Shown: positions 20,300 through 23,716 of the stretch, in pieces | How positions within the stretch are numbered: position 1 is the stretch's first letter | How the letters are laid out: every line of letters starts with the position of its first letter | Assembly: GCA_944381315.1 (NCBI GenBank) | Contig: CALWKR010000027.1 | Coordinates: 16,353 to 80,352 of the forward strand | Length of the DNA: 64,000 nucleotides | Direction of reading: 5' to 3' | Source: an uncultured Christensenellaceae bacterium | GTDB taxonomy: Bacteria > Bacillota > Clostridia > Christensenellales > UBA3700 | Notes under the pieces: model-generated | Told to the model about the DNA's origin: nothing | Seen by the model: only the letters and a program-made list of their open reading frames with translations | Databases searched by the model: none | Position numbers and translations under genes: made by a program

Positions 20300-20337
20300 T
20301 TGTAACGCTTGACTTTACAACGTTCGAGCGCTATAAT
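20300..20337 (+). promoter_or_regulatory. rrf2 promoter with an overlapping inverted-repeat operator
   Basis: TTGTAA (20300-20305), N9, TTACAA (20315-20320). The repeat spans the -35 TTGACT (20309-20314). The -10 TATAAT lies at 20332-20337. Confidence 0.65.
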
Positions 20338-20356
20338 AGCGGCGAACGGAGGAAAG

Positions 20357-20779
20357 ATGCAGATCTCGTCAAGACTAACGATCGCCACTCACATCTTGTT
20401 GGCGATAGAATATTTCAAGGACAAGTGCAAGACCACGTCCGACTTTCTCGCTTCGAGCGTGCACGTCAATCCCGTGGTCATACGCAGGATATTGCTTCAA
20501 CTGCGCGACGCAGGAATGATCGAGGTCGCGCGCGGCAGCGGCGGCGCGTCGCTCAAAGTCGATCCTTCGCAGATCACTATGCTGGACGTCTATCGAGCAG
20601 TCGACTGTGTGGAGAAGAAGGGCTTGTTCCACTTCCACGAGTCGCCTGATCGCAACTGCCCCGTCGGCAGACGCATCCATGACGTGCTCGACGGCAGGCT
20701 TCAAGCGGCGCAGGCGGCGATGGAGCATTCTCTCGCGTCGACCACGCTCGCGGAACTGCTTGCGGAATTGAAGGACTGA
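20357..20779 (+). CDS. Rrf2 family transcriptional regulator
   Basis: MQISSRLTIATHILLAIEYF...SSVHVNPVVIRRILLQLRDAGMIEVARGSGGASL is the Rrf2 wHTH signature. Only one Cys-containing stretch (CPVG) is seen, so cluster ligation is uncertain. Confidence 0.88.
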   Translation: MQISSRLTIATHILLAIEYFKDKCKTTSDFLASSVHVNPVVIRRILLQLRDAGMIEVARGSGGASLKVDPSQITMLDVYRAVDCVEKKGLFHFHESPDRNCPVGRRIHDVLDGRLQAAQAAMEHSLASTTLAELLAELKD

Positions 20780-20812
20780 GGCGCTTTGCGGCATAGGAAT
20801 TGCGCCCTTGTT

Positions 20813-20837
20813 CGCGGCCGAGCGCCGCGATTTTTTT
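20813..20837 (+). terminator. Rho-independent terminator (copy 1)
   Basis: CGCGGC / GCCGCG stem followed by T7 at 20831-20837. Confidence 0.7.
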
Positions 20838-20907
20838 GCGTTCGCGGAATTGCTTGCCGAGTTGAAAGAGACCGAGGAGCTTTGCGGCATAGGGATCGCG
20901 TTTCGTT

Positions 20908-20932
20908 CGCGGCCGAGCGCCGCGATTTTTTT
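20908..20932 (+). terminator. Rho-independent terminator (copy 2)
   Basis: Identical CGCGGCCGAGCGCCGCG hairpin followed by T7 at 20926-20932. Confidence 0.7.
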
Positions 20933-20958
20933 GCAGAAAAAATTTTTCGAAAAAATTT

Positions 20959-21023
20959 GTTGTAACGCTTGACATTACAACATTGGTACGCTATACTGTC
21001 GTTGTAATCGATAAGGTTACAAC
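20959..21023 (+). promoter_or_regulatory. Promoter of the redox/macro/sirtuin operon with two inverted-repeat operators
   Basis: GTTGTAA-CGCTTGACA-TTACAAC (20959-20981) overlaps the -35 TTGACA (20969-20974). The -10 TATACT lies at 20992-20997. A second GTTGTAA-TCGATAAGG-TTACAAC lies at 21001-21023, around the expected +1. Confidence 0.7.
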
Positions 21024-21052
21024 AAAAAAACAACAATTCGGAGGATACAAAA

Positions 21053-21682
21053 ATGAGCAAAAAGATCGCAGTAGTTTGCGCAAACGGCAGAGTGGGACAG
21101 CTTGTCGTCAAAGAGGCAAAGGACAGAGGCATGGACGTCACGGCGTTCGTCAGGGGCGAGAACAAGACCGTCGCAGACAAGGTCGTCGTCAAGGATCTGT
21201 TCGACATCACCAAGGAAGATCTGAAGGGCTATGACGCTGTCGTCGACGCTTTCGGAGCATGGAAGGAAGAGGATCTGCACCTGCACAGCGAGACGTTGAA
21301 GCATCTGTGCGACTTGCTGTCCGGTTCCGAGACCAGACTCATCTATGTCGGCGGTGCGGGCAGCCTGTACGTCGCTCCCGGGAAGATGCTCTATCAGACG
21401 CCTGAATTCCCCGACGTGTTTCGTCCCCTTGCGAGCGCTCAGGTCAAGACCTATTTTGAGCTCAAAGAGAGGAATGACGTCAAGTGGACATTCGTCAGCC
21501 CTGCCGCAGATTTCCGTGCAGACGGCGCCAGAACGGGCAAGTATCTGCTCGGCGGAGACCAACTCATCGTCGGTTCCAAGGGCGAAAGCGTGATCAGCTA
21601 TGCAGATTATGCGATCGCGGTCGTCGACGAGATCGAAAAGGGCGATCACATCCGCGAGAGGATCAGCGTAGTCGAAGCATGA
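21053..21682 (+). CDS. NAD(P)H-binding atypical SDR / NmrA-like oxidoreductase
   Basis: MSKKIAVVCANGRVGQLVVKEA... (Rossmann GxxGxxG variant). 209 aa, of the YwnB-like type. Confidence 0.8.
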   Translation: MSKKIAVVCANGRVGQLVVKEAKDRGMDVTAFVRGENKTVADKVVVKDLFDITKEDLKGYDAVVDAFGAWKEEDLHLHSETLKHLCDLLSGSETRLIYVGGAGSLYVAPGKMLYQTPEFPDVFRPLASAQVKTYFELKERNDVKWTFVSPAADFRADGARTGKYLLGGDQLIVGSKGESVISYADYAIAVVDEIEKGDHIRERISVVEA

Positions 21683-22107
21683 CGGCTCGGGATTGTTTTG
21701 AGCTGTTGACGCACAAGATACACACGGTCGTCGCCGCCACTTCGGACGGCGGCGATCCCGTGACTTGCGCGATCGACATCATGGACTGCGACGACGGCGG
21801 ACTGTATATTTTGACTGCAAAGAGCAAGAATTTCTACCGCAGGCTCAAAGCTCGTCCGACGATCTCGTTGACGGGCGTATGCGGACGCGACACGATGTCG
21901 AGCGTCGCGATCACGGTCAGGGGCAAAGTGCGCGAGATCGGCGAGTCCGCAGTGCCGCGGCTGTTTCAAAAAAATAGATATATGTACGAGATCTATCCCG
22001 ACGCACGATCGCAGAGCGCGCTGAGCGCGTTCTACATCTGCGAGGGGAGCATAGACGTGTTCGACTTGTCGGTCAAGCCGATCGAGACGCGTCACATAGA
22101 GTGGTGA
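21679..22107 (+). CDS. Pyridoxamine 5'-phosphate oxidase-like (FMN-binding split barrel) protein
   Basis: Start at ATG 21679, overlapping the previous stop (ATGA). The 142-aa size and ...GGLYILTAKSKNFYRRLKARPTISLTG... suggest the PNPOx-like family. Confidence 0.65.
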   Translation: MTARDCFELLTHKIHTVVAATSDGGDPVTCAIDIMDCDDGGLYILTAKSKNFYRRLKARPTISLTGVCGRDTMSSVAITVRGKVREIGESAVPRLFQKNRYMYEIYPDARSQSALSAFYICEGSIDVFDLSVKPIETRHIEW

Positions 22108-22110
22108 AAC

Positions 22111-22917
22111 ATGACCCAGCGACAGAGAAGAGAATATTTGATTGCGGCGCTGCTTGCCGAAGATCCGCGCTTTCGCGGCATAAAGACGCCCGAAAGCGAC
22201 GATGAAGCAAAGCAATTGCTGAGAGCGCTGTTCAACGTCAGAGCTCCGCGTCCCGTCGACGCGGAATTTTTGTGTATCCAGGACGAATATCTCAGGGCGG
22301 AGACAGAGGCAAAGGGCATCGTCTCGATCGACGATCTGACGCCTGTCGGAGAGAGGATATATCTGTGGCAGGGAGACATCACGCGGCTAAAATGCGACGC
22401 GATCGTCAATGCCGCCAACTCGCAAATGCTGGGATGTTTTGTCCCGTGTCACGGCTGCATAGACAACGCCATACACACATATGCCGGAGTGCAGCTGAGA
22501 GCAGAATGCGCAAAGATCATGCGCGAGCAAGGGCATGAAGAGCCGACGGGCCGAGCCAAGATCACCGCTGCATACGATCTGCCGTGCAGATATGTGCTGC
22601 ACACCGTAGGCCCGATCGTGAGAGGCAGAGCGCCGAGCAAGCGCGACTGCGAGCTGCTTGCGTCGTGTTATCGCTCATGTTTGGAGCTCGCGCAAGAGGA
22701 AGGTTTGCACAGCATAGCGTTTTGTTGCATTTCAACGGGGGAGTTCGGTTTTCCCAACGAGGCGGCGGCGAGGATCGCCGTCGACACCGTCAGCGATTTT
22801 GTTGCCGCCGATGACAGCGGCATGGAGGTGATCTTCGATGTTTACAAAGACAGGGACGCTCAGATCTACTCCTCAATATTGGGAGCAGACGCAGAGAGTG
22901 CGCAACGCGATCGATGA
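22111..22917 (+). CDS. Macrodomain protein (protein ADP-ribose hydrolase, sirtuin-linked type)
   Basis: [45 protein letters not shown]...HTVGP...[13 protein letters not shown]. This is the macro signature with a Cys/His-containing insertion. Confidence 0.85.
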   Translation: [268 protein letters not shown]

Positions 22918-23716
22918 CGCCGACGCGATCTTGATCGGCGCCGGCGCAGGGCTTTCGACGTCGGCAGGATTGACATATTCGGGCGAGAGGTTCCGCAAAT
23001 ATTTCGGCGACTTTGCCGACAAATACGGCATAAGAGACATATATTCGGGCGGATTTTATCCATTCGAGGATGAGGAATCCTATTGGGCATGGTGGTCGCG
23101 CCACATATATTACAATCGCTACGACGTGCCTGCCGGCAAGCCCTATCTCGACTTGCTCGCGCTGGTCGAAGGCAAAAACTATTTCGTCTTGACGACCAAC
23201 GTCGATCACCAATTCAGACTCGCCGGCTGCGACAAGGCGCGGCTCTTTTACACGCAGGGCGACTATGGGCTGTTTCAATGCAGCGTTCCGTGCTGCGAGA
23301 AGACGTTCGACAACGAGCAGTCCGTGCGTGCGATGGTAGCCGCGCAGCGCGATATGCGCGTGCCGAGCGCGCTCATACCGCGCTGTCCCGTATGCGGCGC
23401 TCCCGTGGTCCCCAACCTCAGATCGGACGACAAATTCGTCGAGGACGAAGGATGGCACGCCGCTACGTCACGCTATGAGGACTTTGTGCAAAAGTATGGC
23501 GGCGGCAAGCTTGTACTGCTTGAACTCGGTGTGGGAGCCAATACCCCGGGCATAATCAAATTCCCGTTTTGGCGGATCGCGGCGCAGAACAAAAATGCGC
23601 TGTATTGTTGCGTCAACAAGGGCGAAGCGTTCGCTCCCGACGCGATAGCGGACAGGGCGGTGTGCCTTGACGCAGACATAGGCGAGGCGATCGCGGACAT
23701 AGCTCGCCGAGGATGA
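22838..23716 (+). CDS. SIR2-family protein, class M-like sirtuin (candidate protein ADP-ribosyltransferase)
   Basis: ILIGAGAGLSTSAG, VLTTNVDHQF and QGDYGLFQC (Q where canonical sirtuins carry the HG histidine). Zn-ribbon Cys pairs CSVPCC and CPVCG. The ATG overlaps the macro gene by 80 nt; an alternative GTG lies at 22898. Confidence 0.8.
   Translation: MFTKTGTLRSTPQYWEQTQRVRNAIDDADAILIGAGAGLSTSAGLTYSGERFRKYFGDFADKYGIRDIYSGGFYPFEDEESYWAWWSRHIYYNRYDVPAGKPYLDLLALVEGKNYFVLTTNVDHQFRLAGCDKARLFYTQGDYGLFQCSVPCCEKTFDNEQSVRAMVAAQRDMRVPSALIPRCPVCGAPVVPNLRSDDKFVEDEGWHAATSRYEDFVQKYGGGKLVLLELGVGANTPGIIKFPFWRIAAQNKNALYCCVNKGEAFAPDAIADRAVCLDADIGEAIADIARRG

Follow-up and report, generated by a model that had tools for sequence, protein, structure and literature searches.

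A probable electrophile-stress operon ending in a class-M sirtuin and zinc-dependent macrodomain pair in an uncultured Christensenellaceae bacterium

Organization of the SirTM locus

The DNA analysed here is a 64-kb stretch of the genome of an uncultured Christensenellaceae bacterium (contig CALWKR010000027.1), to which we refer as the window and whose positions are counted from its first letter. It carries the gene of an Rrf2-type repressor and, downstream on the same strand, four tightly packed genes, the last two of which encode a zinc-type macrodomain protein (Zn-Macro) and a class-M sirtuin (SirTM). The first of the four, taken from the list of open reading frames (ORFs) and matching Pfam NAD_binding_10, encodes an SDR of 209 aa (21053-21682, +). 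It is followed by a PNPOx-like gene of 142 aa (21679-22107, +), which overlaps the SDR stop codon within an ATGA. A gap of 3 nt separates the PNPOx-like stop from the Zn-Macro gene (268 aa; 22111-22917, +), and the SirTM (SIR2) gene (292 aa; 22838-23716, +) shares 80 nt with the 3' end of Macro. All of the ORFs and overlaps listed in a preliminary description of this DNA, made from its letters, were found again, with the ATGA overlap and the 3-nt gap being read directly. These overlapping and abutting reading frames suggest translational coupling along the putative operon.

Both rrf2 and the four-gene unit are preceded by a promoter that lies under the same palindrome. Exact copies of TTGTAA-N9-TTACAA are located at 20300-20320 (O1), 20960-20980 (O2) and 21002-21022 (O3), the three copies already pointed out in the preliminary description, and they are the only three in the 64 kb, where none is expected from 100 shuffles. 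O1 surrounds the -35 box of the rrf2 promoter (TTGACT, 17 nt, TATAAT; 20309-20337, +; 11/12 matches in a consensus scan), which implies that rrf2 is autoregulated. The TTG at 20309, listed as the start of rrf2 in the raw ORF list, is this -35 box, and the real start of the gene (140 aa; 20357-20779, +) is the ATG at 20357 behind GGAGGA. In the operon promoter (TTGACA, 17 nt, TATACT; 20969-20997, +; 11/12 matches in the same scan) it is O2 that surrounds the -35 box. O3 lies 4 nt past the -10 box and covers the expected transcription start. The two promoter regions share 86% identity across 36 nt.

This layout is kept in relatives of the Rrf2 type. O2 recurs there, and nine Rrf2-type relatives show the O2-O3 pair with a start-to-start spacing of 40-43 nt; the nine Rrf2-bearing relatives with conserved operators have a protein identity of ~55-59%. 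The O1 layout upstream of rrf2 is also present in six relatives (L005, L007, L017, L039, L054 and L065). The arrangement of operators and promoters bears out the earlier view of an operon gated by an Rrf2 repressor through three operators.

Terminators delimit the two units. A tandem duplication of ~95 bp, seen as direct repeats at 20745-20934 (+), includes the final 35 nt of rrf2 plus an intrinsic terminator. The terminator scan finds two copies after rrf2 (20812-20837 and 20907-20932, +), each with the stem TCGCGGCCGAGCGCCGCGA then T7, so that two identical terminators, GCGGCCGAGCGCCGC then T7, stand between rrf2 and the operon promoter, and rrf2 is a transcription unit separate from the four-gene operon. 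At the far end, a strong bidirectional intrinsic terminator (23727-23753), whose 11-bp stem contains 9 G-C pairs and stands between a run of A and a run of T, is common to the SirTM operon and a convergent gene of 1270 aa. The four-gene unit is bracketed by promoters and terminators, from which its co-transcription, proposed earlier, looks likely. The interval 20300-23770 leaves no space for additional genes in the operon, and an Rfam scan returned no RNA element in the SirTM locus. The 273-nt spacer between rrf2 and the operon is also found in the same-species metagenomic contigs L001 and L002, and in relatives it mostly measures 57-156 nt.

The sirtuin belongs to class M and the macrodomain to the Zn-Macros

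We compared the sirtuin with solved structures and found that it matches SpySirTM (5A3A) with E=2.8e-70 and 240 bits, followed by the fungal macro-SirTM fusion Mfs1 (8RSN; 80 bits, E=1e-21). By comparison, the best non-SirTM sirtuin, SIRT3, reaches only 21.6 bits, on which ground an ordinary deacylase was rejected, and Pfam SIR2 gives no match for the protein at E<=0.01. The motifs GAGAGLS, TTNVDHQ and QGD and the Cys pairs CSVPCC and CPVC, quoted in the preliminary description, were all located in the sequence. The window's YTQGDYG aligns to HIQGEYG of SpySirTM, so that Q140 corresponds to Gln137 and a QG stands in place of the catalytic HG; Q140 is invariant across 8 homologues. Likewise, N121 (of TTN), R195, GVGANTP at 231-237 and N260 correspond to Asn118, Arg192, GVGx[NT]TP and Asn258 of SpySirTM, and are invariant in the homologue alignment. 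Together with Gln137, these are the residues defined as catalytic or NAD-binding in class M (Rack 2015, PMC4518038).

In sequence the sirtuin is closer to SirTM than to deacylases and does not carry an aligned catalytic His, and what had cautiously been called class-M-like is, judged by its closest relatives and aligned residues, a genuine class-M SirTM and a predicted protein mono-ADP-ribosyltransferase. Its start codon is the ATG at 22838, with GGAGGTG 7 nt upstream. A publicly available gene model of 272 aa (P0001) has a later GTG start, which was rejected since the N-terminal 20 aa are conserved in homologues and GGAGGTG precedes the 22838 ATG. Two database entries labelled SirTM, P0002 (510 aa) and P0003 (357 aa), contain repeated internal SirTM segments and look like assembly or gene-call artefacts.

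The macrodomain matches the NCBIfam model NF003163, 'protein-ADP-ribose hydrolase', over its full length and scores 363.5 bits, where the model's cutoff is 272. Its best match among solved structures is MorMacro (8RSI, E=3e-80), with SauMacro (5KIV) at E=2e-74. Zn-Macros are marked by a NAAN motif, by an N-terminal extension and by a Cx4HxC zinc loop found where other macrodomains have the glycine-rich catalytic loop (PMC11490716). The NAAN motif and the zinc loop (C110, H115, C117) of the window protein align column by column with those of MorMacro, SauMacro and SpyMacro, and its residues 4-80 can be aligned to the N-terminal extension of both 8RSI and 5KIV, which would correspond to the three-helix-bundle extension of Zn-Macros. 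The stretch of the macrodomain quoted in the preliminary description was located in the sequence as well, and the Cys/Cys/His/Cys insertion remarked on there is this published zinc loop. By these hallmarks the protein is a Zn-Macro, a predicted zinc-dependent MacroD-type protein-ADP-ribose hydrolase.

The window pair lacks GcvH-L and LplA2 and joins the published minimal class

We looked for the canonical partners of SirTM in all stop-to-stop frames of the window, with GcvH and LplA of E. coli as phmmer queries, and obtained nothing at E<=10 in a search that had no authentic GcvH-L as positive control. Pfam on the five locus proteins and 40 further window ORFs found neither GCV_H nor BPL_LplA_LipB, and the families of old yellow enzyme (OYE) and luciferase-like monooxygenase (LLM) were also missing from the window. 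Within up to 10 kb on each side of SirTM in 80 relatives, the same GcvH and LplA queries yielded a single insignificant GcvH match (L035, E=0.19).

The statement in the preliminary description that the window has no GcvH-L or LplA2 gene is confirmed by phmmer and Pfam. Its presentation as an anomaly was overstated, since SirTM/Zn-Macro pairs standing 'alone', without GcvH-L and LplA2, are already published (Rack 2015, PMC4518038; Ariza 2024, PMC11490716). The window pair is a new member of this minimal class. It has the overlapping Zn-Macro then SirTM order, the class-M and zinc-loop motifs and the absence of GcvH-L and LplA2 in common with the minimal operon of Methanobrevibacter oralis (MorMacro, 8RSI, the closest solved macrodomain) and the lone pairs of Enterococcus faecalis and Treponema pedis. 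In contrast to pairs described as alone, the window pair forms the 3' end of a four-gene YwnB/PNPOx operon under Rrf2 operators, and relatives of the pair sit under a divergent HxlR regulator instead.

The repressor is a single-Cys Rrf2 protein

The 140-aa repressor matches Pfam Rrf2 (E=2.6e-30), PDB entry 1ylf (E=9e-34) and B. subtilis YwnA (1xd7, E=8e-29). In an alignment of ten cassette Rrf2 proteins, the window's included, with YwnA and 1ylf, C101 within CPVG is the sole conserved Cys. The three-Cys Fe-S ligand set CX5CX5C is absent from the window protein and from its cassette orthologues, and structures of the RsrR/IscR type match weakly (E~1e-4) where those of the YwnA type match strongly, on which grounds an Fe-S- or NO-sensing Rrf2 (IscR/NsrR/RsrR-like) was rejected. 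By sequence the repressor belongs to the single-Cys YwnA/SifR/HypR class, with C101 as its predicted sensing Cys. This makes the NO/Fe-S input suggested in the preliminary description unlikely. Members of the single-Cys class sense quinones, electrophiles or hypochlorous acid (HOCl) through a thiol (PMC9218516, PMC6067689).

The operators agree with this assignment. The experimentally defined operators of HypR and SifR have the core TGTAA-N9-TTACA (PMC6067689, PMC9218516), and those of the window have the same core and overlap promoters. The NCBIfam HypR model scores 45.6 bits for the window protein, far under its 180-bit cutoff.

The upstream genes encode a YwnB-type reductase and a PNPOx-like flavoprotein

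The NAD(P)H-binding SDR of the preliminary description can be specified further. Beyond the Pfam NAD_binding_10 match, it aligns with S. pneumoniae YwnB (4R01) with E=2.5e-67 across residues 4-208, which makes it an atypical SDR and a predicted YwnB-type NAD(P)H-dependent quinone/flavin reductase; YwnB has been demonstrated to be a quinone reductase (PMC9218516). The gene adjoins rrf2, as YwnB is the partner of YwnA-type regulators.

The PNPOx-like protein reaches 29.5 bits with Pfam PNPOx_N, barely above the 28.1 cutoff. Its AlphaFold model, predicted from an alignment of database homologues, has a confidence (pLDDT) of 96.3 and shows a split-barrel flavin/heme-binding fold; the best Foldseek matches are 2hhz, NimC/NimA 2ig6 and general-stress-protein-26-like proteins, with probability 1.0 for 2hhz, 2ig6 and PNPOx structures. 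Its relatives are ~205 aa long and carry a C-terminal 2x[4Fe-4S] ferredoxin domain, both CxxCxxCxxxCP motifs being present in 37 of the 41 ORFs of the family in our survey, and database homologues are mostly labelled '4Fe-4S binding protein'. The window protein ends at residue 142, 3 nt ahead of Macro, and has no ferredoxin domain. Such short forms are a minority, which includes those of L166 and L170. PNPOx-ferredoxin proteins fall into three divergent subgroups, which share 55-60%, 37-39% and 22-23% of their residues with the window protein and are each encoded directly upstream of Macro, and the PNPOx-like/Macro junctions mostly overlap or are <15 nt apart.

Relatives of the pair are embedded in thiol-sensor-gated flavoprotein cassettes

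We scanned one genome per species and found at least 597 relatives, of which the best 80 loci, with 56-65% SirTM identity, were analysed. They come mostly from Oscillospiraceae, Lachnospiraceae and other Clostridia, with a few metagenome-assembled genomes (MAGs) labelled Spirochaetales, Negativicutes (Anaerovibrio), Coriobacteriales or Eggerthella. Neighbouring ORFs were clustered de novo and then annotated with Pfam. Together with the window this gave 81 loci.

Macro is directly upstream of SirTM in 75/81 loci, typically with an overlap of 50-56 nt. A divergent regulator of the HxlR/DUF24 type, with a conserved cysteine in LP(A/E)CPVE, accompanies the pair in 44/81 and the window-type Rrf2 in 10/81. 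The window's own PNPOx-like family (PNPOxA) occurs in 39 of these loci, a second PNPOx-like family (PNPOxB) in 31 and the YwnB-type SDR in 17; further cassette genes encode SnoaL-like and FMN-reductase proteins, a radical-SAM protein with a nitroreductase, and an unannotated 263-aa family. None of the remaining flanking families exceeds 11 of the 81 loci, indicating that the cassette is conserved and its chromosomal context is not. The window's five-gene cassette recurs with unrelated flanks in L007 (a Ruminococcus MAG), L015 (a Spirochaetales MAG), L166 and L170.

In a stricter set of 63 loci with at least 3 kb of upstream sequence (62 relatives plus the window), an HxlR (38) or Rrf2 (10) regulator is present in 48/63 and an upstream flavin/NAD(P)H enzyme gene in 43/63. 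These families are strongly enriched before SirTM as compared with after it. When upstream and downstream positions were compared in 37 loci, the counts were 20 versus 2 for HxlR, 14 versus 0 for PNPOxA, 7 versus 0 for the SDR and 5 versus 0 for Rrf2.

Additionally, we performed the reciprocal survey with PNPOx-like homologues in metagenomes, again with the best 80 loci (52-61% identity). Where the sequence extends far enough, Macro lies downstream of PNPOxA in 63/70 loci (90%), SirTM in 54/61, and an HxlR or Rrf2 gene upstream in 36/43; the exceptions include an IS66 insertion. The linkage is asymmetric: Macro-SirTM is often found without PNPOxA, PNPOxA rarely without Macro-SirTM. GcvH-L probably has the same asymmetric linkage. 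The tight, reciprocal linkage of the PNPOx-like gene and the pair supports, by association only, a functional tie between them.

Within the searchable library, no paper was found that ties SirTM to thiol-sensor-gated, flavoprotein-rich operons or to PNPOx-ferredoxin. Both the conserved embedding of Macro-SirTM in such operons and the PNPOx-ferredoxin linkage appear to be undescribed.

Three side observations were made on the cassettes. The unannotated family of ~263 aa, which has no Pfam or NCBIfam match, is found in cassettes of 11 species (L013, L015, L018, L019, L024, L028, L036, L048, L070, L073 and L079), with the regulator or SDR on one side of it and the PNPOx-like or Macro gene on the other. 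Another unannotated family, ~312 aa long and Cys-rich, occurs in those of 5 species. A cassette sub-type in L043, L049, L060, L063, L084 and L078 has a divergent HxlR regulator in front, then a radical-SAM/SPASM gene, a nitroreductase gene, a divergent PNPOx-ferredoxin gene whose product is 22-23% identical to the window protein, and Macro-SirTM.

A model for the operon and the points that weigh against it

Given the gene content and the regulatory layout, we consider it fairly likely that the locus is an operon for electrophile/quinone stress, or stress by thiol-reactive oxidants, ending in a reversible ADP-ribosylation pair of the minimal-operon SirTM/Zn-Macro kind. Reduced dimers of the single-Cys Rrf2 would occupy O1 at the repressor's own -35 box, O2 at that of the operon and O3 at the operon start, and both promoters would be repressed. 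Quinones, electrophiles or HOCl would modify or oxidise Cys101, by analogy with SifR and HypR, and the repressor would be released. One transcript would then supply the YwnB-type quinone reductase, the PNPOx-like flavoprotein, Zn-Macro and SirTM. SirTM would use NAD+ to mono-ADP-ribosylate a protein other than GcvH-L and Zn-Macro would take the mark off, so that writer and eraser would together act as a switch on a redox-stress effector. The likeliest partner would be the PNPOx-like flavoprotein encoded directly upstream, whose family is seldom found away from Macro-SirTM.

Several points weigh against this model. Gene identities, the architecture of operators, promoters and terminators with its conservation, and gene linkage were observed directly, while the inducing signal, co-transcription, all enzyme activities and the target are what we infer. 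A terminator-like hairpin at 22245-22265, within the 5' part of the Macro ORF (8 pairs, 6 of them G-C, then ATTTTTGT), may be due to chance, with 10 such sites in place of 4.8 expected, or may be an internal attenuator. Species differ in which accessory genes they have, PNPOxA being present in 26/63 and the SDR in 16/63 of the stricter set. At several loci Macro-SirTM has no neighbouring redox gene, and at L039 Rrf2 stands immediately upstream of Macro-SirTM with nothing between; the variable accessory genes and L039 together exclude any single co-operonic enzyme as a universal target. The window's PNPOx-like protein, without its family's ferredoxin domain, may be a degenerate member. Each survey used its 80 best-scoring loci, so that shared ancestry may have raised the frequencies of linkage. 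A lipoylated target encoded outside the visible 64 kb is possible.

Candidate targets and alternative explanations

The preliminary description had proposed that one of the co-operonic redox enzymes may be the target of the pair. The part of this proposal that stands is the functional tie, carried by the reciprocal PNPOx-Macro linkage. The PNPOx-like protein is the best target candidate, by linkage. We propose tentatively, as a doubtful but specific extension, that this flavoprotein, usually fused to a ferredoxin, is the physiological SirTM substrate in gut Clostridia, a counterpart of GcvH-L under thiol-sensor control.

An alternative, which seems unlikely to us, is that the chemistry is that of staphylococci and streptococci and the pair modifies a lipoylated carrier encoded elsewhere, either canonical GcvH or the lipoyl domain of a 2-oxoacid dehydrogenase E2, with the operon providing nothing but co-regulation under oxidative stress. 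Lipoyl-GcvH-L is the only known SirTM substrate and its modification requires lipoylation (PMC4518038; PMC12440151), the SirTM catalytic residues of the window protein are fully conserved, and our inspection covers 64 kb of the genome. Yet GcvH and LplA were found neither in the window nor in flanks of up to 10 kb around SirTM in 80 relatives, and Zn-Macros of minimal operons and of the fusion type, MorMacro included, do not demodify GcvH-L (Ariza 2024, PMC11490716). AlphaFold 3 models of lone-pair Macros with GcvH-L were poor in the same study, which describes as elusive both what is targeted by pairs that do not belong to the extended operon and what their physiological role is (PMC11490716). 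At the positions of the SpyMacro basic patch the window Macro resembles MorMacro, keeping 1/3 of the basic residues and having Asp at the equivalent of R183, which is weak evidence in the same direction.

A second alternative takes the PNPOx-like and YwnB genes as unrelated detoxification genes on a shared stress promoter, with a housekeeping protein or the repressor itself as target. The accessory content would fit this, as it varies among PNPOxA, PNPOxB, SDR, SnoaL, nitroreductase, FMN reductase and the 263-aa protein, and accessory genes are absent at L039, L046, L053, L072 and L081. The explanation is nevertheless decidedly improbable in our judgement, given that Macro follows PNPOxA in 90% of independent metagenomic loci, that PNPOxA is usually translationally coupled to Macro, and that all three divergent PNPOx-ferredoxin subgroups lie directly before Macro.

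Many SIR2 proteins of bacteria deplete NAD+ as a means of defence, and a macrodomain can serve as an antitoxin (DarG). On this general precedent the pair might be an NAD-depleting anti-phage or toxin-antitoxin-like module, a reading we dismiss almost entirely, because the sirtuin is a full class-M protein with ADP-ribosyltransferase residues, the locus is controlled by a redox-sensor repressor and lies among chromosomal housekeeping genes, and adjacent phage or mobile-element genes were not found. A defence-system SIR2 was also rejected in a PADLOC search, in which none of the five locus proteins matched any model.

Comparison with known systems

One known system to compare with the stress operon proposed here is the extended SirTM operon of Staphylococcus aureus and Streptococcus pyogenes, which comprises GcvH-L, Zn-Macro, SirTM, LplA2, OYE and LLM. 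The predicted writer/eraser chemistry, the catalytic residues and the gene overlaps are the same, and both systems associate the pair with flavin oxidoreductases and with oxidative-stress induction, the latter being a prediction for the window. The window differs in having none of GcvH-L, LplA2, OYE and LLM, in drawing its flavoenzymes from other families (the PNPOx-like split barrel and the YwnB atypical SDR), and in its identifiable dedicated repressor with operators.

In its control region the window resembles the SifR/YwnA-YwnB and HypR-MerA regulons of Firmicutes, with the same single CPV Cys and TGTAA-N9-TTACA operators over promoters and, as in B. subtilis ywnAB, an adjacent gene for the YwnB NAD(P)H quinone reductase. 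In contrast to the window operon, the SifR, YwnA and HypR regulons as described contain neither a PNPOx-like flavoprotein nor an ADP-ribosylation pair. DraT/DraG, which acts on nitrogenase reductase, offers a functional analogy only: it is an on/off switch by reversible mono-ADP-ribosylation of an Fe-S redox protein, built from ADP-ribosyltransferase and ADP-ribosylhydrolase folds unrelated to the sirtuin and macrodomain, whereas modification of a flavoprotein here is hypothetical.

Across at least about 600 species-level genomes with relatives, the clostridial pairs are not isolated but form the constant 3' module of thiol-sensor-gated operons. Two unrelated families of thiol-based redox sensors, HxlR and Rrf2, gate these Macro-SirTM operons, which are tied to one family of small flavoproteins. 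The PNPOx-like/ferredoxin protein, YwnB and the regulator thereby become concrete candidates for the substrate, quinones, electrophiles and HOCl are the predicted inducers, and there is a defined operator that could be used for reporters, in abundant gut commensals rather than pathogens. The main value is that the open question of SirTM targets becomes testable. If the PNPOx-like protein were the substrate, it would be the first target class of SirTMs other than GcvH-L, and an electron-transfer or detoxifying flavoprotein would be toggled by reversible ADP-ribosylation.

Other features of the window

Genes were called by codon-usage scoring, since choosing the longest ORF picked antisense shadow ORFs in this GC-rich DNA. 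In the Pfam analysis of the 40 further window ORFs, all genes that could be identified are housekeeping genes, namely uvrB, uvrA, a class-II aminoacyl-tRNA synthetase, a tRNA synthetase of the Asn/Asp/Lys type (class IIb), a MurC-like Mur ligase, spoVG, degV, arg biosynthesis genes and a P-type ATPase. The convergent 1270-aa ORF next to the SirTM operon (23770-27582, -) carries a signal peptide of the lipoprotein type (LxxC) and, at its C-terminus, a transmembrane anchor and a basic tail; its composition is rich in Thr, Ser and Asp. It has no match in Pfam or NCBIfam and no paralogue in the window, is also present in the same-species contig L001, and probably encodes a large cell-surface protein of unknown family.

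Sizeable ORFs without a Pfam match at E<=1e-5 lie at 8409-10643 (-), 48640-49944 (-), 50312-53278 (+), 53385-54509 (+) and 32534-33577 (+); one of these, 988 aa long, has a signal-peptide-like N-terminus. The stretch at 32-34 kb has the lowest G+C in the window, 0.49 compared with about 0.57. Two riboswitches were also detected. The ZMP/ZTP riboswitch at 63767-63848 (RF01750, 50.5 bits) is located at the right edge of the window, with the controlled gene beyond it. The tetrahydrofolate (THF) riboswitch at 17516-17609 (Rfam RF01831, 80.7 bits) immediately precedes the gene for the S-component of an energy-coupling factor (ECF) transporter (17593-18333), which suggests that this gene probably encodes a folate-family transporter.

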